The notes: generated by a model not told the origin, from the letters alone. A stretch of 38,169 nucleotides of DNA from Candidatus Gastranaerophilaceae bacterium (GCA_031547505.1 JAVBRY010000225.1:1-38169); one strand, 5' to 3'; positions 1,434 to 36,454 are shown, counted from the stretch's first letter. Made by a program: numbers and translations.

Positions 1434-1560
1434 TGTCATCCCGAACTTGATTCGGGATCTGCACCAACTGTGCAACCCGCTTTAGGTTTTTGGATGACGT
1501 AAAACTTAAACATACAGATGCTGCAACCGGGTTGGCGCCGCAAACAAGTTCAGCATGACA
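1434..1560. repeat. GTC-hairpin repeat, doublet (A-type)
   Basis: Left unit tgtc-ATCCCGAA-cttga-TTCGGGAT. Right unit ATGCTG...CAGCAT-gaca. Termini tgtcatcccgaac / gttcagcatgaca are inverted repeats. Confidence 0.8.
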
Positions 1561-1579
1561 ATTGGTATAAGGCTAAGAT

Positions 1580-1987
1580 ATGTCAGATAAAAAAATCAAT
1601 TTAAAAATAATAACCCACGAAAAAGAAGTCTTTAACGAAGATGTCGATGCGGTGTATTCAAAAGGCGTAGATGGTGAGTTCGGTATTTTGCCCGACCACA
1701 TTCCTTTTATGAGTGCACTTGATATCGGGGTTACTAAAATTGAAAAAGATCACAATTTCGATTATATAACCACAATGGGCGGCATTTTTCAGTTCAAAGA
1801 CAATCAGGCATTGATTCTTACTGATTTGGCCGAAAAAGGCTGTGACGTTGATGTTGCCAGAGCAAAAGCTGCAAAATCAAGAGCCGAAGCAAGACTTGGC
1901 GACCCTAATGCGGAAGCCGATGCCATCAGAGCACAAATCGCTCTCGCTAAAGCAATGGCAAGACTAAAAGCCGCTGATAACAAGTAA
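1580..1987 (+). CDS. atpC: F-type ATP synthase F1 epsilon subunit
   Basis: 135 aa directly after atpD. N-terminal beta-sandwich segment (VDGEFGILPDHIPF) and Ala/Arg-rich C-terminal helical hairpin typical of epsilon. Confidence 0.85.
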   Translation: MSDKKINLKIITHEKEVFNEDVDAVYSKGVDGEFGILPDHIPFMSALDIGVTKIEKDHNFDYITTMGGIFQFKDNQALILTDLAEKGCDVDVARAKAAKSRAEARLGDPNAEADAIRAQIALAKAMARLKAADNK

Positions 1988-2007
1988 GTTCATACAATAA
2001 GTGTAAC

Positions 2008-2057
2008 GTCATTGCGAACGAGCTCGTAGAGCAGGTGTGGCAATCCAGACAATCGCA
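2008..2057. repeat. GTC-hairpin repeat (B-type, gtcattgcga...ggcaatccag)
   Basis: gtcattgcgaacgagctcgtagagcaggtgtggcaatccagacaatcgca. Same consensus as the copies at 3696 and 6881. Confidence 0.8.
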
Positions 2058-2092
2058 CTAATTATAGTTTGAAAACAACTTAATGATAGCGT

Positions 2093-2848: not shown

Positions 2849-2912
2849 AGTGATATCATAGCATAATCACTCTTTTAATTATTAATTTTAACAAAACACT
2901 ATATTATATTGC

Positions 2913-2984
2913 GTCATTCTGAGCCTTTAAGGCGAAGAATCTCTGGATGTTGCAAAGATCCTTCGGCGTCGCCTCAGGATGACA
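2913..2984. repeat. GTC-hairpin repeat (single long-loop unit with both termini)
   Basis: gtc-ATTCTGAG ... CTCAGGAT-gaca. The arms are complementary apart from one G-T pair. Confidence 0.75.
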
Positions 2985-3070
2985 ATTTTTTTGTAAACTT
3001 TTATTACTCAACTAACAAAAAAAAATTATTACAAATTTTATATAAACACCAGTCAATAAGGAATTGAAAC

Positions 3071-3292
3071 ATGAGAGTCAATTTTATTAACAGCTATTCT
3101 GCAAGACCATCATTTGGAAACCAATATGCAAACCAAATGCCAAAAGACAAAAATTATACAGATATGATTGTCAGACAAGAAAAAGAAATGCAAGACCTGC
3201 TCTTATCTGCTGATCGTAGTGCAGAAAAAGTTAGAGAATTAAAAGAAAAACAGGCTGAAGAACGCAGAGACTATCATTATTTAGGAGAATAA
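3071..3292 (+). CDS. hypothetical small protein (73 aa)
   Basis: ORF with AAGGA RBS about 8 nt upstream. Charged helical C-terminus. 7-nt gap to the next ORF. No recognisable family. Confidence 0.45.
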   Translation: MRVNFINSYSARPSFGNQYANQMPKDKNYTDMIVRQEKEMQDLLLSADRSAEKVRELKEKQAEERRDYHYLGE

Positions 3293-3299
3293 AAAATAG

Positions 3300-3689
3300 A
3301 TGAAAATTCAATCCATTAAGCCTTTTAATACTTCATCTAGCCAGGCTTTTAAGGCCGAACTAAAATTCCAAAATGCTGAAAAGTTTTTGACACCTGAAGA
3401 AATCGAAGGATATACAAAAAGAGCAAGCCGTTGGGGAACGCCTGAAGATAAAGTAACTATAAATATCTCAACCCAACACCTGCCCGAAGAAGAGAATGAC
3501 GGGCCTTATCAACATTTTGACGTAACTGTCCTGAAAGATGGCAAAAAAACAAAATCAGAACATACCTATTATCACTGGCACACATCTGCTGATGACACGA
3601 CAAAACTCGGATTGAATAAGATATTTATTAATTTGAACGATAAAACATTCAGAAACCTGAAAAAAGACTATGATCCGTATAAGCGATAA
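3300..3689 (+). CDS. hypothetical protein (129 aa)
   Basis: ORF with AGGAG RBS upstream, apparently co-transcribed with 3071..3292. No recognisable family. Confidence 0.5.
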   Translation: MKIQSIKPFNTSSSQAFKAELKFQNAEKFLTPEEIEGYTKRASRWGTPEDKVTINISTQHLPEEENDGPYQHFDVTVLKDGKKTKSEHTYYHWHTSADDTTKLGLNKIFINLNDKTFRNLKKDYDPYKR

Positions 3690-3695
3690 TCATTG

Positions 3696-3747
3696 CGTCA
3701 TTGCGAGCGAGCTTATAAAGCGAGCGCGGCAATCCAGGTCATCGCAA
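3696..3747. repeat. GTC-hairpin repeat (B-type)
   Basis: gtc-ATTGCGA-gcgagcttataaagcgagcgcggcaatccaggtca-TCGCAAT. Confidence 0.8.
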
Positions 3748-3795
3748 TAATTTGACAATGTAAGCATATTAAGAATAACCTTAATTTATGTTTTT

Positions 3796-3832
3796 TCTGG
3801 ATTGCTTCGTCACTGCGTTCCTCGCAATGACA
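3796..3832. repeat. GTC-hairpin repeat (B-type, inverted, partial)
   Basis: ctggattgcttcgtcactgcgttcctcgcaatgacag is the reverse orientation of ...ggcaatccag / gtcattgcgag. Confidence 0.7.
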
Positions 3833-3881
3833 GCCTATCTCAACTTCACTAAATCCGCTGTTGACTTAACACAAACTATCT

Positions 3882-4040
3882 TGTCATCCTGAAGCGTCAG
3901 GCTTATTATTTTAGATAATCTTGGAATATTCAGGATCTGACCAATCAGGCTTGAAAGCTTAAAACTTACGGTGTTAACTGGATAGATGCTGAATATTAAC
4001 AACTGTAATAACATGCAAAACCTAATGCTTCAGCATGACA
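3882..4040. repeat. GTC-hairpin repeat, doublet (A-type)
   Basis: Left unit tgtc-ATCCTGAA-(35 nt)-TTCAGGAT. Conserved core ctgaccaatcaggcttgaaagcttaaaacttacgg. Right unit ATGCTGAA-(35 nt)-TTCAGCAT-gaca. Confidence 0.85.
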
Positions 4041-4082
4041 GTATGTTGAATGCTTACTTTGCAGACAAGCGCAATGACAATT

Positions 4083-5870: not shown

Positions 5871-5978
5871 TGTTCTCGTTATCTTAATGTTTAGCTATAC
5901 CAATATAATATTACAGACTTTTTTTGTTGTCATTATAAAAATTTAACGCCGTCCCGCTTTCAATTTTATTTTAATTAT

Positions 5979-6017
5979 TCTCCCTCTCCTGTGAGGAGAG
6001 GGTTGGGGTGAGGTGGT
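5979..6017. repeat. GC-rich hairpin repeat (D-type)
   Basis: ctccctctcctgtgaggagagggttggggtgaggtgg. Related to the ccctcgccccttggggagaggg motif at 23200. Confidence 0.6.
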
Positions 6018-6036
6018 GATCTTTAGGACGATATTG

Positions 6037-6069
6037 CCAAACAAAAACCCCCACTATATTTGGCGAGGG
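6037..6069 (-). terminator. possible intrinsic terminator after 6090..6725
   Basis: On the minus strand: CCCTCGC-caaatata-GTGGGGG (7 bp including two G-U pairs), followed by TTTTTGTTTGG. Confidence 0.4.
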
Positions 6070-6089
6070 CTTTATGTTTATTATATTTC

Positions 6090-6725: not shown

Positions 6726-6752
6726 ACTTTTTCTCCTGAGACATTAGACTTT

Positions 6753-6777
6753 GGTGTTGGGTTAAAACCCAACCTAC
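6753..6777. repeat. 25-nt hairpin repeat (E-type)
   Basis: ggtGTTGGGTTaaAACCCAACctac. A 24/25 inverted copy lies at 6948-6972. Confidence 0.8.
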
Positions 6778-6880
6778 TGAGACATTAAATCTTTATATCA
6801 GCATGAAAACACCTCAAGAATAAATTTGATGAAATTCTAATGAGGCCTTAATAAATGTTTACAAAATCATCCAACTTGCT

Positions 6881-6928
6881 GTCATTGCGAGCGACTGAAA
6901 GGAGCGTGGCAATCCAGAGAAACGCAAT
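6881..6928. repeat. GTC-hairpin repeat (B-type)
   Basis: gtc-ATTGCG-agcgactgaaaggagcgtggcaatccagagaaa-CGCAAT. Confidence 0.8.
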
Positions 6929-6947
6929 AATTAAAAAATGAAAGTCC

Positions 6948-6972
6948 GTAGGTTGGGTTTTAACCCAACAAC
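6948..6972. repeat. 25-nt hairpin repeat (E-type, inverted copy)
   Basis: gtaggttgggttttaacccaacaac, followed by a second hairpin GTCGGGTcaggACCCGAC at 6980-6997. Confidence 0.8.
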
Positions 6973-7009
6973 ATGATTTGTCGGGTCAGGACCCGACCTA
7001 CATTCTTAC

Positions 7010-7219
7010 CTACAATTTATTCGGGCTGTAAAGGAGAATATCATTTGGGGTGCAGTCAAGTGCAAAACAAAGCTTGTCCAGTGTTTCAAATTCAATGCCT
7101 TTATTTTTATCATAATAAAGTCTTGAAACTGTTTTATAATCCAGACCGGCTATTTTGCATACATCAGCAATTTTTAACCGCTTAGCACCCATTATCACTG
7201 ACAAATTGTTTTTAATCAT
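7010..7219 (-). CDS. XRE/Cro-C1 family helix-turn-helix protein (69 aa)
   Basis: The segment RLKIADVCKIAGLDYKTVSRLYYDKNKGIEFETLDKLCFALDCTPNDIL fits the short HTH_26/YozG-like XRE pattern. Confidence 0.75.
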   Translation of the reverse strand: MIKNNLSVIMGAKRLKIADVCKIAGLDYKTVSRLYYDKNKGIEFETLDKLCFALDCTPNDILLYSPNKL

Positions 7220-7300
7220 GTAAGGGATTGTAACACATTGAGCGACTATGGTTGATTATATACCGTAATAGGAATTATATTGGATAGTAAGGTATATTTT

Positions 7301-7504
7301 ATGAAATATAATTTAATGAAAGAAACATATCAAAATTCATTATATGAAGCCGAAAGAGCATTGAGCATACTGCATTTACTTCAATATTCACTGGAACATG
7401 AAAAAGTAAAACAGGCAGACATCATGTCTACAATAAATGTTCTTGAAGAAAAATTGTGTAAACTAAAAAAGAATCTTGGAGAGCTGGAAGGATTGTTTGA
7501 CTAG
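7301..7504 (+). CDS. small all-helical hypothetical protein (67 aa from ATG 7301; ORF track starts at TTG 7280)
   Basis: Divergent from the XRE gene. AAGG RBS before ATG 7301. Heptad-like helical sequence. C-terminal motif VLEEKLCKLKKNL is shared with the ORF at 13457. Confidence 0.45.
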   Translation: MKYNLMKETYQNSLYEAERALSILHLLQYSLEHEKVKQADIMSTINVLEEKLCKLKKNLGELEGLFD

Positions 7505-8146: not shown

Positions 8147-8293
8147 TGTCATTGCCGGGTTAGCCTGTCACCCCGCTGCGCTAAATTGCTTGAGTTGTTT
8201 GATATTGTCTGAGCGGGGTCTAAATCATGCTTTTTAGATACCGCACAGCATAAAACCATTGAGTCTTGTGTTACTCAGCGCTGCGGTATGACA
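8147..8293. repeat. GTC-hairpin repeat, doublet (A-type)
   Basis: Left unit tgtc-ACCCCGCT-(34 nt)-AGCGGGGT. Right unit ATACCGCA-(36 nt)-TGCGGTAT-gaca. An extra tgtcattgccggg stub sits at the left edge. Confidence 0.8.
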
Positions 8294-10838: not shown

Positions 10839-11740
10839 CTAAAAAAGCCGATACACCTGAAACAATTGGTAATGCAACAAGTGCTACGAAAATTGAGCTT
10901 AATGGTGCATCAGAAGACGGAACAGTTGGTGAAGTCGGTGACGGCTTTGAATCAGGACAAGCAAATGCTGATGTTCAAGCGGCATTACAAGCTGCGGTAT
11001 CAGGTAAACAACCGGCTATAAAAGATGCTTTAGATGACATGAATGCTTTTAACCTTAATGATTCGACCGAGGTTAAAACAGCTGAAGAAGCTCTAACAGG
11101 TTTAAAAGCAGATGTTGAGACAGCCAACGTAAATGTAGCAAATGCTGAAAAAGATTATTCTAATAAAGAAAAAGATATAACAAACTTAGAAACTCAAAAA
11201 ACAGATTTAGGAAATGAAATTCAAGAGATTAAAACAGGACAGCTTCCTGCGGCGAATAATGAACTAAGTAACGCAAAATCAGAATTAAGCTTATTGCAAG
11301 CTGATCCTGACGCTAATCCTGCGGCTGTTAACCAGGCACAAAATAATGTACAAAAAGCTCAAAAGACAGTAGACGATATAAATGAACAAATCAAGAAAAA
11401 GACTGAACAAGTTGAAGAATTGACTCAGGCTATTGCTCAAGAAAAAGAAACACTTACAAAGCTGGCAGAAAAACGCGAAGACGCTCAAGCTCACTTGAAA
11501 GATACAGAAAAAGCATATCAAGATGGCTTGAACAATGTTGATGCTGCGAAGCAAGATATAGCTGAACAGGTAGCTGATGCAACAGAGCAGTTATTAGCAG
11601 CACAAGAAGAATCGAATGGTAATAACAATACTAACAATATTGTTAACCCATTTAAGGCAGCTAAGGCAAAAGAAATAGCAAATACCAATTTCTTTGCAAC
11701 TCAACCCATACAATCTAATGGTCCTAGCTGGGCAGACTAA
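10781..11740 (+). CDS. coiled-coil hypothetical protein (319 aa)
   Basis: ATG with GAGAG RBS. Long heptad-rich, Ala/Gln/Glu/Lys/Asn-rich sequence with no signal peptide. Followed by a good intrinsic terminator. Confidence 0.6.
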   Translation: MAVDNNQNVLLQKLTQLYSSKKADTPETIGNATSATKIELNGASEDGTVGEVGDGFESGQANADVQAALQAAVSGKQPAIKDALDDMNAFNLNDSTEVKTAEEALTGLKADVETANVNVANAEKDYSNKEKDITNLETQKTDLGNEIQEIKTGQLPAANNELSNAKSELSLLQADPDANPAAVNQAQNNVQKAQKTVDDINEQIKKKTEQVEELTQAIAQEKETLTKLAEKREDAQAHLKDTEKAYQDGLNNVDAAKQDIAEQVADATEQLLAAQEESNGNNNTNNIVNPFKAAKAKEIANTNFFATQPIQSNGPSWAD

Positions 11741-11830: not shown

Positions 11831-11976
11831 GCCGCCCCGGGCTTGGATTATAGAAAAATGCTTAAAGTTGAGTTTTACGGGGTCACATAAACCCAAGCTT
11901 GTTCTGTGAGATTGCGTAAGACATTCAAAGAGATAGACCGGCTACGCCGGAGACCCCGGGTCAAGCCCGGGGCGAC
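11831..11976. repeat. GC-rich-terminus hairpin element (C-type)
   Basis: Termini gccgccccgggcttgg ... tcaagcccggggcgac. The right end read in reverse is gtcg-CCCCGGG-cttga-CCCGGGG-tctcc. Confidence 0.8.
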
Positions 11977-12073
11977 AAACAACTATACAGCACGCAGAAA
12001 CTCCGTTTCTGGCTTAGCTTGCCTCTATTTAAAATGATACTTAATCATTTTAAACAGAGTTCTTAACTTTGTT

Positions 12074-13047: not shown

Positions 13048-13110
13048 TGTCATACCGCAGAGTCAGGCTTTTCAAGTTATAATAATTTTTGCTGTGCGGT
13101 ATCTGACCAT
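13048..13110. repeat. GTC-hairpin repeat, single unit (A-type)
   Basis: tgtc-ATACCGCA-gagtcaggctt...(35 nt)-TGCGGTAT-ctgacca. Confidence 0.8.
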
Positions 13111-13136: not shown

Positions 13137-13343
13137 TTATTTTTTCTTAAAATCTATTTCATAGCCTAATTCATACAAAATGATATCTAATTCAACAAGA
13201 TTTACCGTTCCTTTTTTCAATTTGGAGGATAAATTCTGCACAGAATAAGGCTTTCCTTTTTTCTTGGAAATACATTTTGCCAAATGTGTCAAAGTTACTG
13301 CACTGCCGACAGCTAATTTTCTTAATTCATTTCCTATATCCAT
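13137..13343 (-). CDS. XRE-family helix-turn-helix protein (68 aa)
   Basis: IGNELRKLAVGSAVTLTHLAKCIS ... SVQNLSSKLKKGTVNLVELDIILYELGYEIDF matches the short XRE pattern in which the HTH is followed by a ...KL.RGT...EL..I...LG motif. Confidence 0.65.
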   Translation of the reverse strand: MDIGNELRKLAVGSAVTLTHLAKCISKKKGKPYSVQNLSSKLKKGTVNLVELDIILYELGYEIDFKKK

Positions 13344-13380
13344 AATTTAAAAATACATTATTAATTGAATTTTTAATATA

Positions 13381-13424
13381 TAGTTTAAAAAATTCTTGAC
13401 TATTTTAAACTATTAATTTAAAAT
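13381..13424 (+). promoter_or_regulatory. candidate promoter with overlapping palindromic operator
   Basis: TTGACT (13396-13401), 17 nt, TAAAAT (13419-13424). A perfect 10-bp inverted repeat TAGTTTAAAA (13381-13390) / TTTTAAACTA (13403-13412) straddles the -35. Confidence 0.4.
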
Positions 13425-13456
13425 TAAAATATAAATTGAAAACGGTAACAAATTAT

Positions 13457-13681
13457 ATGACACAAAAACGAATAAAAATATCCAGAATAGAAAACCAAAT
13501 GAATGACATAGGGGTCAGAATTGATATTGTGCAAAGTCTTGTTGATATTCTTATAGAATCAATGTTTTTTAGTGACAACTTAAAACACAAAGATACTCAA
13601 AATCGTACTATTGTTTTGCAGGAAAAAATTTTAAATATGAAAAAAGAATTTTCATGTATTGTGAAAATTTTAAGAATATAA
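13457..13681 (+). CDS. small all-helical hypothetical protein (74 aa from ATG 13457; ORF track starts at TTG 13436)
   Basis: Divergent from the XRE gene at 13137..13343 and downstream of a TTGACT-17-TAAAAT promoter. C-terminal VLQEKILNMKKEF resembles the ORF at 7301. Confidence 0.4.
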   Translation: MTQKRIKISRIENQMNDIGVRIDIVQSLVDILIESMFFSDNLKHKDTQNRTIVLQEKILNMKKEFSCIVKILRI

Positions 13682-13696
13682 CTTACAGTCACAAAT

Positions 13697-13728
13697 TGTC
13701 AGATTCCGCATCAAGTGCGGAATGACAG
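13697..13728. repeat. minimal GTC-hairpin unit (short loop)
   Basis: tgtcag-ATTCCGCA-tcaag-TGCGGAAT-gacag. Lies between convergent gene ends, so it may act as a bidirectional terminator. Confidence 0.8.
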
Positions 13729-13746
13729 CAAATTTATTAAATTTAC

Positions 13747-15738: not shown

Positions 15739-15920
15739 CGTCATTGCGCTTGTTCGCGTTAACGGGTATGAGATGTTGCAATCGCTATCCAACTTTTACC
15801 TGAAGCAATCTCTTTGTGTTGAGATTACTCGCTCACTTCGTGCTTGCTCGTGTAACGCCAAGCGCGAACAAGCGAAAAACAATCATCGCTTGACCCTATG
15901 CTTTTTGTCTCGTAATGACA
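15739..15920. repeat. GTC-hairpin composite element (F-type)
   Basis: cgtcattGCGCTTGTTCGCG ... CGCGAACAAGCG ... tgtctcgtaatgaca. The internal segment gaagcaatctctttgtgttgagattact is shared, inverted, with 31488-31610. Confidence 0.75.
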
Positions 15921-15932
15921 ACTAAAATATTC

Positions 15933-21990: not shown

Positions 21991-22166
21991 GTCGCCGCCC
22001 CGGGCATTATCTGTGCAAAATGTCATACAAATAAGTTTTACGGGGTCTCATAAAAGCATAATTTTCTCAAGACTTGTGTCGTACTATTCCAACAATGAAA
22101 AACAAGTGTATGAGATCCCGTAAGGAACGATTGTAGTGTCATTCAATATTTAATGCCCGGGACGGC
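21991..22166. repeat. GC-rich-terminus hairpin element (C-type)
   Basis: Termini gtcgccgccccgggcatta ... taatgcccgggacggc. Internal stem TTACGGGGTCTCATA ... TATGAGATCCCGTAA. Confidence 0.8.
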
Positions 22167-23174: not shown

Positions 23175-23199
23175 GTGAATATCAAACAATTGTGAGTTC

Positions 23200-23414
23200 T
23201 GTCCCTCGCCCCTTGGGGAGAGGGTAGTTTTTTCGACTTGAGCAATTTTGCGAAAGTCTGAAAAACGGATGAGGGGTTTTTAGTAGATACAAATAACTTT
23301 TACCCCTCACACATTTTTCTAATGCTCAACCATGTCTCGCATTGAAAAATTTCTCACCTCTCACAAAACTTGCCATTTAGGCAACTTTTGCTCGGCAGAG
23401 TCCAAGGGGCGAGA
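23200..23414. repeat. composite GC-rich hairpin element (D-type)
   Basis: Long-range inverted termini CTCGCCCCTTGG ... CCAAGGGGCGAG. Internal stem GAGGGGT...ACCCCTC. Module acctctcacaaaa-hairpin-ttttgctcggcagag. Confidence 0.7.
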
Positions 23415-26668: not shown

Positions 26669-26852
26669 TGTCATCCCGAAGCGCCCAGCTTTGAAGATAA
26701 TAATAATTTGTCATGTTCGGGATCTTGCCAGTCAGGTTTGAAAGCTTGAAGCTTACGGTATCAATGTGACAGATTCACCCGTTCGGGTATCCTGATTCGT
26801 ACGATTCGTTCCTCATCTACGACTCAAGCCCGCATCAAGTGCGGATTGACAG
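26669..26852. repeat. GTC-hairpin repeat, doublet (A-type)
   Basis: Left unit tgtc-ATCCCGAA-(35 nt)-TTCGGGAT. Core cttgccagtcaggtttgaaagcttgaagcttacgg. Right unit CCGCA-tcaag-TGCGG-attgacag. Confidence 0.85.
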
Positions 26853-26876
26853 AAAGATTGATGTGGTTGTCTGGAT

Positions 26877-26957
26877 TTTACCTCTCACAAAAGCAACATT
26901 TGGTTGCTTTTGTTCGGCAGAGTGCTACCGCCGCTTCGCGAACAAGCGCAATGACCA
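26877..26957. repeat. D-type module plus terminal ...gcgcaatgac stub
   Basis: tacctctcacaaaaGCAACatttgGTTGCttttgttcggcagag parallels 23355-23400. It ends with cgcgaacaagcgcaatgacc, as in F/B-type termini. Confidence 0.65.
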
Positions 26958-27818: not shown

Positions 27819-30782
27819 CTAAAAACTGATAACCACCGATAGGTTGTAATTACTGTTGTAATCTTTAACATCAGGACCTTTAATATATTTTAATGTTTCT
27901 TTAATACTTTGTAATACAACATTATCAATTTGCTCAGAGCCGCTTGATTCAGTGACTTGAATACGTTTGATAGTATTGTCTTTTGCTACTTCAAAAGACA
28001 CTCTGATTCTCGGGTTGTATGTCGGGTCAGTTACATAAGCCAAATCATTTTGCAGATTAATTTGCAGATTCTTACCTGAAATTTGCAGATATTCTTTGAA
28101 TGACGGATCCATTACCAGATTTTGACTTACTTCCCATGAAATTTTAGTTATCGTGATTGCTGCAGGTTGTTCAGAAAATACATTTGTCATGGATTTATTG
28201 ATATCTTGTGACAGTGCAGGTTCTTCAGGTTTTGGCGGAGCCTCTGATCCGGGCAAAGCAAACGGCGATTTTTCTTCTGAAGGAGGAGTTCCGCCTTCAG
28301 GCGTTTGAGGAGTAATTTTGTTTAATTTCATATACCATGCCGCTACACCACCGCCGACAGCCAACAGAAGAACAAGCGCGCCCATGATAATTTTGTTTGT
28401 CATTTTTCTTGCGCCTTCAATAGCAGGCTGCTCTGATATATCGAGGAGAGTTTCACCTTCTTGAAGCTCCATATTTTCATCTGCATTTTCGAACAATGCA
28501 CCGATATGCTCCTCTTCGGGTTTCTTTTCGAGCTTTTCTTCGACAGGCTTAATCGGAGTTTCTTCTTGTGGTTCATCTTCAAGCATAGACTCATACAACG
28601 CCTCTTTTGGAGTTTGTTTGTCCTGATTGTTATTATCTTCGCTCAGCATGCCCATCAGCTCATCGTCCATCAGGCCTTCGATTTCAGGGTTCACCTCTTC
28701 ATCTTCTTCAGCAGATCCTTCAGGAAGAATCTCTATGCGCGAATATTCATCAGAAGGAGCTTCTTCAATAGAAATTTCTTCTGTGGTTACTATTTCATCT
28801 TCGTCAGCTTCAAGTTCTTCCACTACTTCATTTAGCTGTTCCTCTGATTCAGGCTCTTCCTCAAGAATCTCTTCTTCTTGAGAAACCACAATCTCGTCTA
28901 TCTCAATACTCACATCCTCTATTTCAAAGGATGCGGCCGAATCTTCTGACTCTTCCAGCGTTTCCAATTTTATTTCTTCAATCTCGTCAGAAGCAGATAA
29001 CTCTTCAATTTCTTCTTCAGACAATATAAATTCTTCTTCTTTTTCCATAGTTTCTTCTGCCCCTTCCCCTGTTTCTCCTTCTTCTTGCTCTTCCCCTTGT
29101 TTTAATTCTTCCAATTCTTCAATTTCTTCCGCTTCCTCAGTTTCCACTGTTTCCACTGTTTCCTCTGCTATTTCCATTTTTTCGGCTCTATCAATGCTAT
29201 CCATTCTCGGCTCTTCTTTTATTTCAACCGGCTCCACTTCAAGAGAAATTTCTTCAACGGCTTCCTCTAAAATTTCCGTTTCTAATTCTTCTATCTCGGC
29301 AGCGCCTTCGGTTTCTATTTCAATATCCATTCTCGGCTCTTCTTCAGAAGCTTCTCCAAAAGCCTCCTCATTCGTTTCTGCGGGTATTTCCACGGATATC
29401 TCCTCAGACGCCTCCTCAATTAATTCCTCGGAAACCTCCTCAACAAATACCTCAGGCTCTTCTTCGAGTTCCGTTTCTTCAACAGTTTCCTCAACCACTT
29501 CTTCCGTAATCTCTTCCATCTCGGCTTCCATCCCGGCTTCAAATTCAACTTCAGATTTAGCAATTTTTACATCCATTGTCTCTTCAAGAACAATTATCTC
29601 AGCTTCTTCCTCTGTCATTTCATCCAATTTACATTCTTCACTTACTTTTTCAAGTTCCTCTGTTTTCCCTGTTTCCCCTGTTTCTTCTTCTTGAACCTCA
29701 GAAGTTAATTCAACATTTTCCTCAGCCTCTTTGTGCTCCTCAGTGTCCACAACATCCCCGATATCAATCAAATCGTCGCTTACATTTTCAGGTTGTACAT
29801 AAATATGTTCAACAATGGTCTCACCCGCTATTTCTCCAATCACACCCTCTGCAACCACTGTGGCAGCACCTGCGACAATGGTTTCGGAGTACATAATATT
29901 AGCCGCTTCCATGATAATGTTTTCCATATTCACGCCATCAGTGACATTATCAAAAGAAGGGTCAGGTAAAGCAGGCTCAAAAGGAGGTTCCGGCTCAATT
30001 TCCTCTATCTCCTCTTCAACAACACTTTCATTTTCAAAATCCGCAAAAGCATTCTGCTCAACTCCGCCTGTCAAAACAGTTAATGTATTGTCATCAAGCA
30101 GCTCGGGGTAATTTTTTACCTGTGAAACAATATCCTCAAACTCTCCTACATCAACGAACTCTTCCCTGCACTCTGTACACGCAAGAACATGTTTAATAAA
30201 AAATAAACTCTCACTTTCATTGATTTCAGAATCCAAAAACGCAATCGTCATTCCGCTGACTCTGTCATGTTCATGCTGGGAAATAATTCTGGGTTTAGGG
30301 AATACATTAGCTAAAGCGCCTTTCAATTCATCAAACGGAGACAAAACCTTTGTACTGTAGGCAAAATACTGATCAACACTCTTAGATTCATCCAAAATAT
30401 ATGCATCCACAAAACCCAAATGCTCTATTTCTGTGAGTGTTTTATTCAACTTTACAACCGCATAAAAATCCGGTGCAGCAGAATACTTTTTGTGAGATTT
30501 TGGAACAAAAAATGCTCCGTCTTCCCAAACCACTCTTACATCAATTCTGGCGTCGCCTATGTATAAGTCAGTCAGCTCGATATTTTGTGCAAAAGCAGGA
30601 ACTTTAAAAAGACTGTATTTATAAGAAACGTCATGCCCCAATTCTTTTAAATATGAAGCAAGCGCAAAAGCTGCTGTTGAAAATGCATAAGCACGCTTTC
30701 TTAAATCAGCGTCCTCTATTTTTGCTGATATAGTCTTAGCCATTTCTAAATTTTTATTATCTATCTCGTAACTAATTCCCAT
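27819..30782 (-). CDS. multidomain membrane protein: DUF1822-like N-domain, HxxxCxxC (ZAS-type) motif, poly-acidic tract, TM helix, Pro-rich linker, TonB_C-like domain
   Basis: 987 aa. The N-terminal 130 aa resemble DUF1822 (..ASYLKELG..DLYIGDARIDVRVV..FFVP..DFYAVVKL..EHLGFV). HVLACTEC lies at aa 198-205. Glu-rich from about aa 255 to 760. TM helix IIMGALVLLLAVGGGVAAWYM. C-terminal RIRVSFEVAKDNTIKRIQVTESSGSEQIDNVVLQSIKETL resembles TonB_C. Confidence 0.6.
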   Translation of the reverse strand: MGISYEIDNKNLEMAKTISAKIEDADLRKRAYAFSTAAFALASYLKELGHDVSYKYSLFKVPAFAQNIELTDLYIGDARIDVRVVWEDGAFFVPKSHKKYSAAPDFYAVVKLNKTLTEIEHLGFVDAYILDESKSVDQYFAYSTKVLSPFDELKGALANVFPKPRIISQHEHDRVSGMTIAFLDSEINESESLFFIKHVLACTECREEFVDVGEFEDIVSQVKNYPELLDDNTLTVLTGGVEQNAFADFENESVVEEEIEEIEPEPPFEPALPDPSFDNVTDGVNMENIIMEAANIMYSETIVAGAATVVAEGVIGEIAGETIVEHIYVQPENVSDDLIDIGDVVDTEEHKEAEENVELTSEVQEEETGETGKTEELEKVSEECKLDEMTEEEAEIIVLEETMDVKIAKSEVEFEAGMEAEMEEITEEVVEETVEETELEEEPEVFVEEVSEELIEEASEEISVEIPAETNEEAFGEASEEEPRMDIEIETEGAAEIEELETEILEEAVEEISLEVEPVEIKEEPRMDSIDRAEKMEIAEETVETVETEEAEEIEELEELKQGEEQEEGETGEGAEETMEKEEEFILSEEEIEELSASDEIEEIKLETLEESEDSAASFEIEDVSIEIDEIVVSQEEEILEEEPESEEQLNEVVEELEADEDEIVTTEEISIEEAPSDEYSRIEILPEGSAEEDEEVNPEIEGLMDDELMGMLSEDNNNQDKQTPKEALYESMLEDEPQEETPIKPVEEKLEKKPEEEHIGALFENADENMELQEGETLLDISEQPAIEGARKMTNKIIMGALVLLLAVGGGVAAWYMKLNKITPQTPEGGTPPSEEKSPFALPGSEAPPKPEEPALSQDINKSMTNVFSEQPAAITITKISWEVSQNLVMDPSFKEYLQISGKNLQINLQNDLAYVTDPTYNPRIRVSFEVAKDNTIKRIQVTESSGSEQIDNVVLQSIKETLKYIKGPDVKDYNSNYNLSVVISF

Positions 30783-31411: not shown

Positions 31412-31444
31412 ACAACATAATTAAACTTTAGGTACATAAAAACG

Positions 31445-31481: not shown

Positions 31482-31487
31482 AAGTGC

Positions 31488-31610
31488 GTCATTACGAGAC
31501 AAAAAATTTTGGGTTACACAATGATTATTATTTCGAAGTAATCTCATTGCAAAGAGATTGCTTCGTGAGAAAATTATTACTTATTTTCAAGCCCTATGTC
31601 TCGCAATGAC
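31488..31610. repeat. GTC-hairpin element (F-type)
   Basis: Termini gtcATTACGAGACA ... TGTCTCGCAATgac are 14-nt inverted repeats with one mismatch. Internal palindrome cgaagtaatctcattgcaaagagattgcttcg. Confidence 0.8.
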
Positions 31611-31777
31611 GTGATATTTTGCGCAATACACTAACAAATAAAAATATTACCCGCTTGGCTTAGCATAACAGATAGTGCTTTTTCCCAATGTAATAATTTC
31701 AAAAAGTGGCAAAATATAAATGAAAGGATTCAATATAGTCCTGCGGAATTAAGAATAGTTATTGGGAGTAAACTATT

Positions 31778-33095: not shown

Positions 33096-33317
33096 CCTTT
33101 TTCTGTTACTTCAAAGTAATAGATATTAAGACCTGCCTCAATTGACCGGGTTTTATAAAAGAGTAAAAAAGATAGTAAGAAAAACAGTACAAAAAAGTAT
33201 AATGAAACCCTAAAACCTTCTATAAAAGAGTTTTTAGGCATAGCCGGAAAGTATTAGATTCAAAAAAAAGATGATGAATAAAAATTGTCTGTAAAATGTT
33301 TACTATGTAAAAATAAC

Positions 33318-33448
33318 TGTCATGCTGAAGCGCTAAGCCTAAGCAGTTTTTATTAATTTTTCATGTTCAGCATCTTGCCAATTAAGTTTGGAGGCTTAAA
33401 GCTTACGATTACAGTTTGATAGATGCCGCATCAAGTGCGGCATGACAG
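33318..33448. repeat. GTC-hairpin repeat, doublet (A-type)
   Basis: Left unit tgtc-ATGCTGAA-(35 nt)-TTCAGCAT. Core cttgccaattaagtttggaggcttaaagcttacg. Right unit ATGCCGCA-tcaag-TGCGGCAT-gacag. Confidence 0.85.
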
Positions 33449-33500
33449 CGAATTGAGTGCTTCAGGTGACAGTATGACTGATGCATTGTCGCATGGTTAT

Positions 33501-33902
33501 TTACAAATAATCTTCAAACTTTTTATCCACAACAAACTCATATCCGCATTCATCAAAAGTCTCATATCCGCCAAGGATGATTTTTTTGTCGAGCATAGGA
33601 TATTTTCGGCAGTAGATTGAACGGAGTAAATAGTCTTTGCACTTGTTGTCATCGCTTAACGATTTGCATGTGAATAATAATGCTCCCTTTTCGTTTTTTC
33701 CCGAAATGAAAAAATGATTATATTTTTTGTCCCATTCTCTCATCACATCAAATTGCTTTTCGGTTGTTATATAATCTTCACCATTTAAAAACACTATATT
33801 TCGACAGCAGTGACCGCACTGACGGCACTCACCTTTTACTATGTACTTTGAGGTGGAAAATTTAGAGAAAATAAAATCTATGAATTGTTTTATGGCTTTC
33901 AT
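33501..33902 (-). CDS. YkgJ-family cysteine-cluster protein (CxxCxxCC)
   Basis: 133 aa. CRQCGHCCRN motif plus downstream Cys residues (CKSLSDDNKCKDY...YCRKYP), typical of UPF0153/YkgJ. Confidence 0.75.
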   Translation of the reverse strand: MKAIKQFIDFIFSKFSTSKYIVKGECRQCGHCCRNIVFLNGEDYITTEKQFDVMREWDKKYNHFFISGKNEKGALLFTCKSLSDDNKCKDYLLRSIYCRKYPMLDKKIILGGYETFDECGYEFVVDKKFEDYL

Positions 33903-33904
33903 GG

Positions 33905-34312
33905 CTACTTAACCCAAAAATCGTTCCTCACCAAAGGAGTATCCAAATCATTAAACGCAAAAACCTGCACGAAGTAGTATCCTGCCTCATGTAAAGCAAA
34001 ACTGTTCAAAAAATAATTTTGCGCTGTGTCAACATGATAGTCTTTTGACTGATATATTTTGTAACCCCAGTGCACATTTTTTTCTTCTTTTTTAACTATC
34101 TGAAACCGAATGTATTCGTTCTTGAATCCTTTTGGCATAAGAATAGCGTAGTATATAGGCTGCCCGACACTGAAAACTTTTTCATTTGTGTTGGTTTGTT
34201 TTGTCACGGGTGCAGAGCTGAAAACCAGCATTGGCGAGTTTTTATCACATCCGCTAAGTAGAACGGAAAGCAACACAAAAACTGCAACAAATAAAAAAGA
34301 TTTTTTCATCAT
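33905..34312 (-). CDS. hypothetical lipoprotein (135 aa)
   Basis: Signal peptide with lipobox LLSGC. Its start overlaps the upstream TPR gene stop by 4 nt (ATGA). Confidence 0.6.
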   Translation of the reverse strand: MMKKSFLFVAVFVLLSVLLSGCDKNSPMLVFSSAPVTKQTNTNEKVFSVGQPIYYAILMPKGFKNEYIRFQIVKKEEKNVHWGYKIYQSKDYHVDTAQNYFLNSFALHEAGYYFVQVFAFNDLDTPLVRNDFWVK

Positions 34313-36300
34313 TTTGATTTAGACCGCAAATAGTCCGCTCTGGCTTTGATTTCTTTTTTTACAGATGCGTCGGTAGAATATTCCAAAAACTTTTCATAGT
34401 TCTCAATCGCCAGCGCAGAGTTGTTTTCTTTTTCATACGCCAACGCAAGAGCGTAGTATGCATAAGCATAATCAGGTTTTATTGAAATAGCTGTGCTCAG
34501 AACTTTCTTTGTTCTTTCCATGTTATTTTGTTCTGCATAACAGAGCCCTGCATTGAAAAGAGCATCAACGTTTTTCGGATTCAAAGTTATTATATATTCA
34601 TATTTTTCAAGCGCTTTTGTTGTGTCACCGCTGTTTTTGTAAGCATTTCCGAGCTTTAAAAGTGCATCTTCAGTGTTGTTGTTTATTACAAGCGCTTTTT
34701 CAAACTCAAGAATTGCTCCTTTGTAGTCTTTTGCTTTTACACAAATATCGCCCAGTCCGATATATGCTTCAATTTCAGCTTTATCTATCTCAAGAACCTT
34801 GCAGTATACGACTTTAGCTTCATCTAGTTTATTGTATTTTACTAAAAGTTCTGCATAATCGAGCAAAAGTTCTTTGTCATCAGGACTTACTTCCAGAGCA
34901 CGTTCATACTGTTCTATAGCTTTAGTTTTCACACCCAGCTCATCATACGAGCGTGCCATAGCTTTCATAGCATCAACATCGCCCTTGCTGAGTTCTGATG
35001 ATTGTTCATAACAGCTGATTGCTTTTTTCTGGTTGCCTGCTTTTGAATAAGCCTCACCTTGAGCAACATATGCTTTTGAGAGATATTCTTTTACTTTTGC
35101 TTCGGGCTTTTGAGCGTATAGATTTTTGTATATAGCAATTGCTTCCTCATAGCTTTTTGTTGCATGAAGAGCTATTGCTTTGTTAAATAGCAGATTGTAG
35201 TCATTCTTATTTGTTGCAAGCAGCTCGTCGTATACTTTTACAGCAGAAGTATAATCCTTGTTCAAGTGATAGCTTCTTGCGAGTTCTTTTTTGGCTTCGT
35301 CATAGTTTGGATTTATCTCGAGTGCCTTTGTATAATTTTCGATAGCCTGCTCGTAGTCATTTTGTTTTTGATACACAACAGCTAAATTGTAGTAAGCATT
35401 ATCATTTTTAGGATTGTACACTATATATTCTTTGTATTTTGCGATTGCTTCGTCATTTTTGCCCATGTCTGCAAGAAGATTTGCGTAATCAAACTTTAAA
35501 TCTTCCAAATTAGGATTGATTTCAAACGCTTTTTTAAACTGTGCAAGTGCCAAATCATCTTTGTCCAATTTCACATACGCAATCGCCATATTCCCGTAAG
35601 ACGCATAGTCATCAGGGTTTGCGGCTACAGCTTTTTTCAGCATTTCTACAGAGTTCGTGTAGTCACATGAACGAAGTAATGAAAGCCCATAGTTCGAGTA
35701 TTCTTTGAACCCTGACGGATTTCTTGTGTAAAGAGCCGCATACTCATCAGAAGCTTCTTGGTACTTTTCATTTTTTAAATAGATGGAAGCGAGATTCTCT
35801 CTGGCCTCAGTGTTATCGGGATAGTACCCGAGAAATGTTTTAAAATAGTTTGTGGCTTCTTCATAGTTATTTTGCAAGAATCTTACGTTTGCAAGATTCA
35901 AATAATTATACTTATATTCAGGGAAAATTGTCATGGCATGGTAGTATGCCTGAAAAGCGTTCTCATAGTCATTTTGCTGCTGCAAAATATTCCCCATGCT
36001 TATGTAAACAAGAGCATCGTTGGGCTTTAACTTTATGGCTTTTTTGTAAGCCACAAGAGCATTTTGCCAGTCACCGACTTCAGAATACAGTCCTCCCAGC
36101 TTAATATAAAGAATCGGTTCATCCGGAGAGGACTCGAGAGCTTTCTTAAGCTGTTCTATTGCCTGAATAAAATTGTATTGCTTTTCTAAAGTGTTAGCAG
36201 TTTGAAAATACTGATACGACTCATCAGACATTTTGGCACATACAGATGTTGTACCTATAGCCAGGGATAATGATAAAGCCAATAACAATTTGCATTTCAT
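34309..36300 (-). CDS. exported tetratricopeptide-repeat protein (663 aa)
   Basis: Signal peptide followed by more than 15 tandem 34-aa TPR units (recurrent A..Y.kAlei.P....a..nLg pattern). Confidence 0.85.
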   Translation of the reverse strand: MKCKLLLALSLSLAIGTTSVCAKMSDESYQYFQTANTLEKQYNFIQAIEQLKKALESSPDEPILYIKLGGLYSEVGDWQNALVAYKKAIKLKPNDALVYISMGNILQQQNDYENAFQAYYHAMTIFPEYKYNYLNLANVRFLQNNYEEATNYFKTFLGYYPDNTEARENLASIYLKNEKYQEASDEYAALYTRNPSGFKEYSNYGLSLLRSCDYTNSVEMLKKAVAANPDDYASYGNMAIAYVKLDKDDLALAQFKKAFEINPNLEDLKFDYANLLADMGKNDEAIAKYKEYIVYNPKNDNAYYNLAVVYQKQNDYEQAIENYTKALEINPNYDEAKKELARSYHLNKDYTSAVKVYDELLATNKNDYNLLFNKAIALHATKSYEEAIAIYKNLYAQKPEAKVKEYLSKAYVAQGEAYSKAGNQKKAISCYEQSSELSKGDVDAMKAMARSYDELGVKTKAIEQYERALEVSPDDKELLLDYAELLVKYNKLDEAKVVYCKVLEIDKAEIEAYIGLGDICVKAKDYKGAILEFEKALVINNNTEDALLKLGNAYKNSGDTTKALEKYEYIITLNPKNVDALFNAGLCYAEQNNMERTKKVLSTAISIKPDYAYAYYALALAYEKENNSALAIENYEKFLEYSTDASVKKEIKARADYLRSKSK

Positions 36301-36378
36301 GCTTTTAATTATCTAATTTAGCACCGCTTTTGTCAACCGACAGAAAATTGGCTGAAACGAAGTTTAAGCCTTATTTTC

Positions 36379-36454
36379 GTCGCCCCGGGCTTGACCCGGG
36401 GTCTCCGGTAAAGCCGGTCAAGATTGTGAGATTCCTACCCGCGCAGGAATGACG
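36379..36454. repeat. C-type element, truncated, fused to a short hairpin ending aatgacg
   Basis: gtcgccccgggcttgacccggggtctccgg-aagccggtc matches the reverse of the right end of 11831-11976. It is followed by ATTCCT-acccgcgc-AGGAAT-gacg. Confidence 0.75.

Follow-up and report, generated by a model that had tools for sequence, protein, structure and literature searches.

The GTC-flanked hairpin repeats of a gut Gastranaerophilales contig are probably CGTC-tagged REPs of the SRM/NTS kind

We analyzed a 38-kb contig of a gut Melainabacterium (Gastranaerophilales), hereafter the window. A family of GTC-flanked hairpins makes up the dominant part of its structured intergenic DNA. These hairpins probably belong to the CGTC-tagged REP super-family, and the same object has been described as SRM or NTS, the single-stranded DNA target of the Ssn nucleases. 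The TypA of the organism was a singleton in the protein collection.

With a rule asking for GTC, an offset of 0-1, an 8/8 Watson-Crick stem and a loop of 3-45, we found 13 matches in the window, 10 of them intergenic, against 1.6 +/- 1.6 (maximum 6) in 30 dinucleotide shuffles. When perfect hairpins were collected with stems no shorter than 7 bp and with 3 or more GC, GTC was also the leading 5' flank of the 58 obtained (14 cases; 7 for the runner-up), and GTCAT and its complement reached 5.6/kb in intergenic as opposed to 1.8/kb in coding DNA. The hairpin repeats reported in a preliminary description of this DNA are thus real, as the compensatory stem changes described below also indicate. 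The extent given there, about 2-2.5 kb, agrees with the 2,192 bp to which all repeat elements sum (1,989 bp of GTC type), but intergenic DNA amounts to 5.9 kb, of which this is 34-37% and not the greater part. Likewise, the claim of elements in at least 20 spacers was too high: among the 25 spacers of at least 40 nt, 15 carried GTC-type elements and 17 a repeat of any type. The elements are as follows.

1434..1563, unstranded: dimer of A type, head to head, in the atpD-atpC spacer; its forward short unit reads TGTC-ATCCCGAA-CTTGA-TTCGGGAT-C at 1434-1462
1514-1563: inverted unit of this dimer, with a 7/8 stem and a 23-nt loop
2007..2060, plus: B-type single unit CGTC-ATTGC-[24 nt]-GCAAT-CCAG, 3' of atpC
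2912..2985, unstranded: X-type head-to-head dimer; CGTC-ATTCTGAGCC-TTTAA-GGCGAAGAAT-CTC, 13-nt spacer, inverted ...GATCCTTCGGC-GTC-GCCTCAGGAT-GACA; tandem G.A mismatch in the stems
3696..3835, unstranded: B-type head-to-head dimer; CGTCATTGCGAGCG...GGCAATCCAG ... CTGGATTGC...CTCGCAATGACAG
3882..4041, unstranded: head-to-head heterodimer of A type, both of whose units have long (35-nt) loops; stems ATCCTGAA and ATGCTGAA, conserved spacer ATCAGGCTTGAAAGCTTAAAACTTACGG
4058..4079, minus: B-type half-unit remnant, ..AAGCGCAATGACA
6876..6925, plus: single B-type unit lying inside a pair of inverted GTAG-type hairpins
8166..8293, unstranded: two long-loop units joined head to head as a dimer, with stems ACCCCGCT and ATACCGCA and loops measuring 34 and 36 nt
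11831..11986, unstranded: C-type dimer; left unit with long loop and degenerate tag (GCC-GCCCCG...CGGGGT-C), right unit short and inverted, GACCCCGGG-TCAAG-CCCGGGGC-GACA
13048..13109, plus: A-type long-loop unit with the stem ATACCGCA; with the unit at 13677..13730 it forms a dimer that a two-ORF cassette of about 570 bp splits, and is the left partner
13677..13730, minus: right partner of the split dimer; half A spacer and short inverted unit GATTCCGCA-TCAAG-TGCGGAAT-GACA
15740..15929, unstranded: B/F-type long head-to-head element; CGTCATTGCGC ... CTCGTAATGACA
21991..22166, unstranded: C-type long palindromic element with nested inverted repeats; GCCGCCCCGGGCATTA...TAATGCCCGGGACGGC
26669..26855, unstranded: A-type element; long-loop unit (ATCCCGAA), conserved spacer, degenerate stretch, short inverted unit at 26827-26850
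26926..26956, minus: B-type half-unit remnant, ..CGAACAAGCGCAATGACC
31487..31611, unstranded: F-type (B-like) head-to-head dimer; CGTCATTACGAGACA...TGTCTCGCAATGACG
33318..33475, unstranded: A-type heterodimer; long-loop unit (ATGCTGAA, 36-nt loop), conserved spacer, short inverted GATGCCGCA-TCAAG-TGCGGCAT-GACA, remnant
36378..36454, unstranded: head-to-head heterodimer; CGTC-GCCCCGGG-CTTGA-CCCGGGGT-C and an inverted CGTC-1-like unit (minus strand GTC-ATTCCTGC-GCGG-GTAGGAAT-C)

The units share one plan: a 5' tag (C/T)GTC, a stem of 8 bp with AT at its start in nearly all cases, a loop that is either 5 nt long (CTTGA) or an unstructured, AT-rich insert of 34-36 nt, and a C directly after the stem. 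All 15 canonical units of the window had TGTC or CGTC at offset 0 and an 8-bp stem, which started with AT in 11; the others started with AC (8167), AA (26850) or, in two C-type units, GC. Seven loops were short (CTTGA in six, GCGG in one), seven measured 34-36 nt and one 23 nt. The order GTC, stem, stem, C was kept in 14 of the 15, the exception being the degenerate unit at 26827-26850. While the tag, the CTTGA loop and the trailing C stayed constant, the window stems co-varied (CCCGAA/TTCGGG, GCTGAA/TTCAGC, ACCGCA/TGCGGT, GCCGCA/TGCGGC, CCCCGGG/CCCGGGG). Among 40 units with a long loop, positions 3 and 5 of the stem were changed on both sides in 17 and 15 cases, respectively, with no broken pair, and 26 of 27 raw pattern matches were complementary at the two positions that the pattern left free (25% expected). 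Inner structure of the 34-36-nt loops was not detectable (z-scores of -1.6 to +1.3). The 8-bp stem that closes such a loop is weak. In B/F units the basal stem has only 5 bp, and folding was no better than for shuffled sequence.

Head-to-head dimers, with their tags outward, begin at 1434, 2912, 3882, 8166, 26669, 33318 and 36378. A spacer, ..GCTTRAARCTTACG.., is common to three A-type dimers and half of it is found in a fourth, in line with the inverted doublets around a conserved core that had been noticed before. Dimers of 75-190 bp with inverted ends TGTCAT...ATGACA might also be read as MITEs, that is, as deletion derivatives of an insertion sequence with a DDE transposase and TGTCAT... 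terminal inverted repeats. This MITE-like reading, already proposed in the preliminary description, is unsupported because none of the 11 dimers examined has a flanking target-site duplication. Moreover, the supposed terminal repeats are themselves hairpins with co-varying stems, single units are common, and no recurrent adjoining DDE transposase was found in the window or in 27 metagenome loci. We regard a MITE origin as highly improbable.

The anatomy of the short units is that of a known class. CGTC-tagged REPs (families CGTC-1 to CGTC-4; Di Nocera, De Gregorio & Rocco 2013, PMC3733652), among them Neisseria dRS3 and Rickettsia RPE-4 and RPE-6, consist of a tag that is often TGTC and may also be CCTC, an 8-9 bp stem starting with AT (complementary A-T and T-A pairs in positions 1 and 2), a 4-5-nt loop and a short tail. 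They occur mostly as head-to-head dimers, in which spacers are conserved and 20-100 bp long, and heterodimers are frequent; the elements are located between convergent or co-directional genes, and aberrant loops were noted in a few species (PMC3733652). The short units and dimers of the window agree with this definition on every point: they have an unpaired CGTC/TGTC tag, an AT-start 8-bp stem, a 4-5-nt loop (CTTGA or GCGG) and a short tail, and form head-to-head dimers and heterodimers with conserved 20-100 bp spacers in convergent and co-directional positions. Their expansion is lineage-specific, and, as with the CGTC-tagged REPs, there are several families per genome and abundance is patchy among relatives. 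The same design appeared in unrelated phyla sampled by chance, as CGTC-ATTCCCGC-GAAG-GCGGGAAT-CC (L078) and CGTC-ATTCCSCG-CTTGA-CGSGGAAT-CCAG (L080). The window differs from the published class in its AT-richer stems (ATSCYGAA, ATNCCGCA), in a tail of CTG/CTT instead of CCA, in the 34-36-nt loop insert of about half of its A units, in B/F units with a 5-bp stem and a loop of at least 18 nt, and in its host, Gastranaerophilales being a lineage that the 2013 survey did not cover.

The resemblance to REPs and REPINs raises the question of a RAYT. The GTC-type units do resemble the GTAG REPs of E. coli and Pseudomonas, with which RAYT (TnpA_REP) is associated, in having a tag at the hairpin foot, inverted dimers and an intergenic location without target duplication, and they could in principle be mobilized in trans by a RAYT (HUH Y1) encoded elsewhere in the genome. 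In canonical RAYT-associated REPs, however, the tetranucleotide at the hairpin foot is GT[AG]G (PMC6006769), placed 0-2 nt 5' of the hairpin (PMC6006769, PMC3116915), whereas the tag here is YGTC. In the window, GTAG is found only on the three D/E hairpins at 6752-7001 (GTAG-GTTGGGT-TTTA-ACCCAAC). Since they are so tagged, these hairpins belong to another superfamily and are GTAG-type REPs, a class distinct from the GTC-type units; for them a RAYT may well exist in the genome. The CCCTCTCC/GGAGAGGG hairpins are a third kind. The single superfamily proposed earlier therefore holds for A, C and X and probably for B/F, but not for D/E. As had been stated, the window has no transposase ORF: Pfam searches of 20 ORFs found neither a transposase nor an Ssn-like ORF, and the genes beyond these are, by sequence, housekeeping genes. 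We never saw a GTC-type unit next to a Y1 gene, either in the window or in 27 metagenome loci, and Pfam searches of the 149 ORFs adjoining long-loop A units in these loci found no recurrent transposase family. In the 2013 survey, too, CGTC REPs adjoined no tyrosine transposase, even in genomes encoding one, and were associated with neither RAYT nor any other transposase (PMC3733652). Unit types identical to those of the window bracket ssn genes instead. Mobilization of the GTC-type units by a RAYT is thus very unlikely; the REP/REPIN analogy of the preliminary description stands as to form and probably fails as to the partner, the known partner of YGTC-tagged units being Ssn, with a GIY-YIG rather than an HUH/Y1 fold. 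What the two systems share is the REPtron logic, in which repeats of the same family bracket the gene of their small cognate nuclease.

Ssn proteins are GIY-YIG (cd10448) single-strand nucleases of about 95 aa that bind and cut NTS/SRM hairpins as ssDNA (Chenal et al. 2025, Nat Commun, PMC11893778). Those characterized are single-domain endonucleases of 94-100 aa that cut a few nucleotides upstream of the tag; GTC is required for cutting, and the palindrome and trailing C for binding. The characterized units are recognized only single-stranded and in one orientation only, and a [motif]-ssn-[motif] arrangement was reported (PMC11893778). The window hairpins are oriented in the same way, GTC preceding the palindrome and C following it. 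In a first sample, 11 of 11 ssn-like genes had units within 150 nt on both sides, with 8.9 units/kb near these genes and 0.76/kb elsewhere in the same loci (P about 1e-18). Three further loci had units on both sides (L147, L155) or on one side only (L138), which brings the both-sided cases to 13 of 14 genes, in ten or more lineages. The encoded proteins share 41-55% identity with the 94-aa orthologue of N. gonorrhoeae, with Y6, Y17 and E64 invariant, and are, as judged from sequence, members of the Ssn family. The unit types of the window bracket ssn homologues in L102, L108, L118, L119, L122, L125, L147 and L157, and the flanking stems ATCCTGAA, ATGCTGAA and ATGCCGAA, with CTTGT/CTCGT loops, match those of the window; X-type units, as at 2912..2985, flank ssn in Planktothrix, and B-like units do so in Spirosoma. 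The [motif]-ssn-[motif] arrangement of SRM/NTS, which number hundreds of intergenic copies, is thus confirmed around homologues flanked by window unit types. When Ssn was searched by tblastn against 72,556 plasmid records, only 33 records matched, most of their genera being published CGTC-REP hosts (Azospirillum, Sinorhizobium, Sphingobium, Novosphingobium, Neisseria, Rhizobium).

Some features of the ssn loci are hints for the wider, tentative reading put forward below. An ssn element lies between sufB and sufC in A. lipoferum; L108 and L135 have whole dimers duplicated on both sides of ssn; the same ssn block occurs in two contexts (L147 and L155), with identity from the TGTC tag onward; and Ssn proteins are 60-75% identical across phylum labels, many of them on very short contigs.

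In two respects the window departs from SRM/NTS as published. The 38 kb hold no ssn gene, the best E-value of an Ssn HMM against all six frames being 0.039, and the published SRM pattern, HGTCWYN(0-2)YYVSBRHN(0-5)WNVSBRGN(0-2)RNCYNB, had 0 matches on both strands of the window (0.09 expected). The same implementation recovered the units of A. lipoferum, S. meliloti, Neisseria, L078 and L080, and missed the ssn-flanking units in 7 of 10 representative loci (L102, L108, L118, L119, L122, L125, L137). Membership is therefore argued from unit architecture and from what surrounds the ssn homologues rather than from a match to the published pattern.

The placement of the elements is what would be expected if they were transcript elements, terminators or 3'-end stabilizers that need no dedicated protein and were spread by host selection in a terminator-poor genome. 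They occupy 5 of 5 convergent and most co-directional spacers and are absent from 3 of the 4 divergent promoter spacers. Classical terminators are rare, as had been remarked: terminator-like sites were no commoner than chance (18 against 15.5 and 17 against 15.2 expected), and a strict scan found 0 in the window compared with 0.62 per 10 kb in relatives (2.4 expected, a difference that is not significant). A relative (L008) has a classical terminator 3' of atpC, where the window has the B unit at 2007..2060. Such a role would, however, leave unexplained the unpaired conserved tag, the trailing C, the outward dimers with their conserved spacer, the long unstructured loop inserts and the bracketing of ssn across phyla. 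Also, N. meningitidis SsnA, the one Ssn tested on RNA, bound the DNA motif and not the same sequence as RNA (PMC11893778). We think it unlikely that selection on transcripts is the main explanation; a transcript role could be a secondary effect, compatible with the units being Ssn targets.

If the units are CGTC REPs of the SRM/NTS kind, as we favor, one or more ssn genes would lie elsewhere in the genome, each with units of its own on either side. The outward-tag dimers with a conserved spacer would then be gene-less counterparts of [unit]-ssn-[inverted unit] that multiplied within the lineage into convergent and co-directional spacers. Ssn would spread the units, with a possible effect on transcripts or recombination; movement of units by Ssn is put forward as a hypothesis only in the source paper (PMC11893778). 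New here are the Gastranaerophilales as a host lineage of CGTC/SRM repeats, a class of AT-rich stems missed by the published SRM motif, and the form with a 34-36-nt loop insert, which recurs in 27 metagenome contigs. The repeat spacer sequence had 0 matches in the metagenome collection.

A wider reading, which we put forward tentatively, is that the window may represent an uncatalogued Ssn/SRM branch with AT-rich stems (ATSCYGAA) and a fixed-length loop-insert form, abundant in uncultured lineages, the composite dimers possibly behaving as gene-less, non-autonomous versions of a minimal [unit]-ssn-[inverted unit]. The lineages in question are Melainabacteria, a Roizmanbacteria-labelled CPR contig and a Deltaproteobacteria-labelled MAG. 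If Ssn drives the spread, these elements would form a GIY-YIG-based class of ssDNA transposons, parallel to IS200/IS605-RAYT/REPIN, and Ssn would be the long-missing 'transposase' of the CGTC REPs.

All perfect hairpins of the window with stems of 7 bp or more were listed. Among them, those that contained GC and were intergenic formed a series of the type gtc/AT......-loop-......AT/ct together with its inverse, ag/AT...AT/gac, and GTC was the most frequent 5' flank among the GC-containing hairpins of the window (14 of 58). In 48 related Gastranaerophilales loci, such GTC-flanked hairpins numbered 0-3 per locus. With one fixed rule, which required GTC at an offset of 0-1, 8 of 8 pairs and a loop of 3-45, 13 matches were found in the window, 10 of them intergenic, as compared with 1.6 +/- 1.6 in dinucleotide shuffles. 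Across the units, a (C/T)GTC tag, a CTTGA loop and a C after the stem were constant, and the stems varied by compensatory changes. In the dimers, formed by two inverted units, the tags pointed outward and the spacer sequence ..AGGYTTGRARGCTTRAARCTTACG.. was shared. The excess over shuffles and the compensatory stems show that the GTC-flanked hairpin repeats exist, and largely confirm the preliminary description.

The earlier hand counts held in part. The elements total 2,192 bp (1,989 bp of GTC type), within the 2-2.5 kb that had been proposed, but this represents 34-37% of the 5,923 bp of intergenic DNA and not most of it; likewise, elements were present in 15-17 of the 25 spacers that measure 40 nt or more, rather than in at least 20. 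All five convergent spacers, most of the co-directional ones and one of four divergent ones held elements, and target-site duplications flanked none of 11 elements. The true non-coding fraction is smaller, since two "spacers" likely contain small genes: a 73-aa ORF at 3072-3293, upstream of 3300-3689, and a short ORF resembling a CxxC...CxxC zinc ribbon at ~36480-36660 on the minus strand. For annotation, the units make up about one third of the spacer DNA and are the source of many spurious short ORFs (peptides such as CHPE..., VIASE..., LAMT).

Two super-families of prokaryotic REPs are distinguished by their tags, GTAG and CGTC (Di Nocera et al., 2013; PMC3733652). Members of the CGTC class have a terminal CGTC, often altered to TGTC. 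Their stem measures 8-9 bp and almost invariably begins with complementary AT, the loop has 4-5 nt, and a short tail is left unpaired. They mostly form head-to-head dimers, often heterodimers, with the tags outside and conserved spacers of 20-100 bp; they lie between convergent and co-directional genes, and their abundance is uneven among relatives (PMC3733652). The short units of the window and their dimers agree with this definition in every respect, and the same design was found in two unrelated loci, L078 and L080, both retrieved only via HisF similarity:

TGTC-ATCCCGAA-CTTGA-TTCGGGAT-CTG, short unit of the window
CGTC-GCCCCGGG-CTTGA-CCCGGGGT-CTC, short unit of the window
CGTC-ATTCCCGC-GAAG-GCGGGAAT-CC, unit of L078
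CGTC-ATTCCSCG-CTTGA-CGSGGAAT-CCAG, unit of L080

The analogy with REPs thus stands as far as form is concerned. The preliminary description had also proposed RAYT, the Y1 transposase of GTAG REPs, as the partner. CGTC REPs, unlike GTAG REPs, have no association with a RAYT or other transposase gene (PMC3733652), and the proposed partner is therefore judged to be the wrong one; following that lead would result in a search for RAYT, whereas the documented partner of the class is Ssn, a GIY-YIG ssDNA nuclease of ~95 aa.

Some units of the window have longer loops. With tag, stem and tail unchanged, seven A-type units had loops of 34-36 nt (A-long) and one had a loop of 23 nt. The A-long pattern was found in 27 metagenome contigs with a G+C of 30-50%, and gave no matches in viral contigs. 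An alignment of 40 long units supported the 8-bp basal stem only: at stem positions 3 and 5, both sides were changed in 17 and 15 sequences, respectively, with no broken pairs. Moreover, these two positions, which the search pattern allowed to mismatch, were complementary in 26 of 27 raw matches. An inner stem in the 35-nt loops was rejected, as RNAalifold retained the basal stem alone, and 12 long-loop inserts folded alone showed no structure of their own (z from -1.6 to +1.3, mean near 0). On the 27 contigs the long unit was again found head-to-head with a long or a short unit, and B-type, GTAG-type and CCTCTCC-type hairpins were also present. L004, a locus from a relative, has an A-long heterodimer with stems as in the window, and L019 has a short A unit. 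Thus, the family occurs elsewhere in the order and is greatly expanded in the lineage of the window. A pattern for the A-dimer spacer gave no matches in the metagenome collection; it required CTTACG, and missed a near-identical spacer in locus L107. In the B/F units (CGTC-ATTGC-[18-24 nt]-GCAAT-CCAG, with some longer), the tag, the initial AT and the CCAG tail are retained; their basal stem has just 5 bp, and they folded no better than shuffles. In the X-type units (2912-2985), the stem is 10 bp long and contains a tandem G.A mismatch.

The hairpins labelled D and E in the preliminary description do not belong to one superfamily with the others: their tag is GTAG, and they are thus GTAG REPs. 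A third class was also found:

6752-6780, GTAG-tagged REP hairpin
6945-6973, GTAG-tagged REP hairpin
6976-7001, GTAG-tagged REP hairpin
5978-6017, third hairpin class, CCCTCTCC-TGTG-AGGAGAGGG and GGGGTGAGG, with relatives at 23199-23226 and 23262-23312

The tag strands of the GTAG hairpins read GTAG-GTTGGGT-TTTA-ACCCAAC and GTAG-GTCGGGT-CCTG-ACCCGAC, and two of the three form an inverted pair, 93% complementary, that encloses a B unit. Since GTAG hairpins are the class associated with RAYT, a RAYT may exist elsewhere in this genome. The third-class hairpin is followed by TTGGGGTGAGG, and GGGGTGAG of this class agrees with GGGGWSAS, a motif described in inverted repeats that flank TIR-associated tyrosine transposases (PMC3733652). 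Similar hairpins adjoin ssn, the gene coding for Ssn, in loci L119 and L138.

A divergent pair at 7010-7504, adjoining a B unit and the GTAG hairpins, codes for a 69-aa HTH protein of the Cro/C1 type (PF13443, E 9e-20); the other ORF, of 74 aa, has no family. In addition, a cassette of ~570 bp lies exactly between A-dimer partners at 13048-13109 and 13677-13730, and splits the dimer spacer. The cassette (13137-13681) carries two ORFs, one of 68 aa and HTH-like on the minus strand and one of 81 aa on the plus strand, as well as a palindromic region rich in AT, and looks like DNA inserted into an A-type dimer. That the two cassettes are paralogous cargo of the elements was rejected, the similarity between their proteins not being significant (E 0.03 and 0.34).

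The window has a G+C of ~39% and a housekeeping gene content (atpD/atpC, hisF, typA, scpB, a Ski2-like helicase, prmA, accA, accD, an M23 peptidase, glnA, dapF, an Opp-type ATPase, dnaJ, a sigma factor and a TPR protein). The closest genomes by HisF (83-89% identity) were gut MAGs labelled Candidatus Gastranaerophilales (Melainabacteria/Vampirovibrionia). An exact-protein lookup of HisF returned no record, and TypA was a singleton in the protein collection, found on the window contig only, with the next relative 86% identical. Among the nearest genomes, only L008 shared atpD-atpC and hisF with the window, in a different order (hisF-atpD-atpC), and this region of L008 was devoid of units. A tRNA scan of the window found none, and Rfam gave no match over the whole window at E<=1. 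Families D1 and D14 of direct repeats, like the strong skew in GC and AT at 28-30 kb, are explained by a 987-aa ORF (27819-30782, minus strand) that has a very long, highly acidic, glutamate-rich and repetitive middle part and no Pfam match. As listed, the helicase ORF on the minus strand (8301-10838) shares 58 nt (10781-10838), head-to-head, with the next ORF, which is on the plus strand (10781-11740); the true start of the helicase is probably further in, because its first ~60 residues look non-native.

Intrinsic-terminator-like sites occurred in the window at chance level, and in a strict terminator census of the window versus relatives none was found where 2.4 were expected, a difference that is not significant. 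Possibly, the GTC units act as terminators or in recombination. A classical terminator, made up of a hairpin and a T-tract, lies after atpC in L008 (12797-12870); the equivalent position in the window (1988-2092) is occupied by a B unit and lacks a T-tract. The idea that the tag and AT-rich loop form a promoter (TTGTCA-17-TATTAT at 3881) was dropped, as it applied to a single copy only.

A Pfam screen of 149 ORFs from the 27 A-long loci revealed no recurrent transposase family. At one of these loci, L102, a 95-aa GIY-YIG ORF was embedded in dimers of TGTC units. This ORF had 4,372 homologues at E<=1e-8, 60-75% identical across the labels Cyanobacteriota, Roizmanbacteria, Deltaproteobacteria, WOR-3 and Desulfobacterales, and many were on very short contigs. 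In all of the following loci ssn was bracketed by units, in these arrangements:

L108-117, a whole dimer, identical, on both sides of ssn
L118, three tandem dimers upstream of ssn
L119, two ssn genes, each bracketed by units
L122/123, minimal form, (TGTC-ACCCTGAA-CTTGT-TTCAGGGT)-gene-(GATGCTGAA-ACAAG-TTCAGCAT-GACA)
L125-133, one unit 9 nt before the ssn ATG and one overlapping the stop

In ten representative loci, units were found within 150 nt on both sides of all 11 ssn genes, and unit density was 8.9/kb near ssn versus 0.76/kb elsewhere (P ~1e-18). Three further ssn loci had units on both sides (two) or upstream only (one). When the GIY-YIG protein was compared by tblastn with 72,556 plasmid records, 33 matched, and most of the genera are published CGTC-REP hosts. 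In annotated replicons of A. lipoferum 4B, S. meliloti, N. gonorrhoeae and N. aromaticivorans, ssn was bracketed by the species' own unit; in N. gonorrhoeae, the gene is inside a dRS3 array. Planktothrix ssn is flanked by X-type dimers, as at 2912-2985 in the window, and Spirosoma ssn by a B-like unit, TGTC-ATCCC-GAGGAACGA-GGGAT-C. The genes showed 41-55% identity to the 94-aa N. gonorrhoeae Ssn orthologue, with Y6, Y17 and E64 invariant, and belong to the Ssn family.

In A. lipoferum 4B (L134, plasmid p3), ssn and two flanking CGTC-1 dimers (1392-1898) lie between sufB and sufC, which are normally within one operon, and the element looks like an insertion. In L108 (2826-3421) and L135 (1270-1962), a whole dimer (head-to-head or tail-to-tail) and its spacer are directly repeated on either side of ssn. 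The same ssn block of ~570 bp is found in L147 and L155 (~1413-1990) with different neighbours, in one case N_methyl gene/EF-G, whereas in the other it comes immediately behind EF-G. Identity starts at the tag, TGTC, of the unit upstream. The annotated 108-aa Ssn of L138 (P0144) begins within a TGTC unit (1498-1521; GTC ATG CTG AAC TTG TTT CAG); its N-terminal extension is thus probably a repeat-derived mis-annotation, and the same cause may apply to several Ssn homologues of 106-142 aa.

In N. meningitidis, SsnA has 94 aa and is a member of the cd10448 GIY-YIG family (Chenal et al., 2025; PMC11893778). Its binding to the NTS (CGTCATTCCCGCGMAVGCGGGAATCYRG, a sequence that includes dRS3) is restricted to ssDNA in one orientation, and it cuts a few nt upstream; cleavage depends on three bases before the palindrome, binding on the palindrome and the C after it, and Y6, Y17 and E64 are the residues mutated in that study (PMC11893778). 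In Neisseria, the NTS-SsnA pair lowers the integration of transforming DNA. Ssn-related motifs (SRMs) are found near 71% of ssnA homologues, ssnA is present in 81% of the genomes with >200 SRMs, and the NTS-ssnA-NTS layout was noted as IS-like, with mobility proposed as a hypothesis (PMC11893778). The association of ssn with the units is thus already published, and is here reproduced, not discovered. The 2025 paper (PMC11893778) does not cite the 2013 survey (PMC3733652). Since dRS3 is CGTC-1 (PMC3733652), the CGTC REPs and the NTS/SRM hairpins are the same objects, and this joins two strands of literature, in one of which CGTC REPs were described as having no transposase of their own.

The published degenerate SRM pattern gave no matches in the window (0.09 expected) or around ssn in L102, L108, L118, L119, L122, L125 and L137. 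Our implementation of the pattern is valid, because it finds the units of A. lipoferum, S. meliloti, Neisseria, L078 and L080. What is seen in the window is therefore a branch of the family with AT-rich stems, together with a long-loop form, that the published census would miss. Also new is the host lineage, Melainabacteria, named in neither study (PMC3733652; PMC11893778).

An Ssn HMM run over all six frames of the window detected no ssn gene (best E-value 0.039). We infer that Ssn is encoded in the genome of this organism; it would then act on the units of the window, and may be the means by which they spread. These units are like those of the known CGTC REP/SRM systems in tag, stem and dimer form, but differ in their AT-rich stems and long-loop form. 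As any Ssn/motif pair might serve as a tool for cutting ssDNA at specific sequences, new classes of motif are of some practical use. For the family as a whole, the published SRM pattern under-counts its members: units of the class with AT-rich stems, found on either side of ssn in contigs of Melainabacteria-like, CPR and delta-proteobacterial type, escape it.
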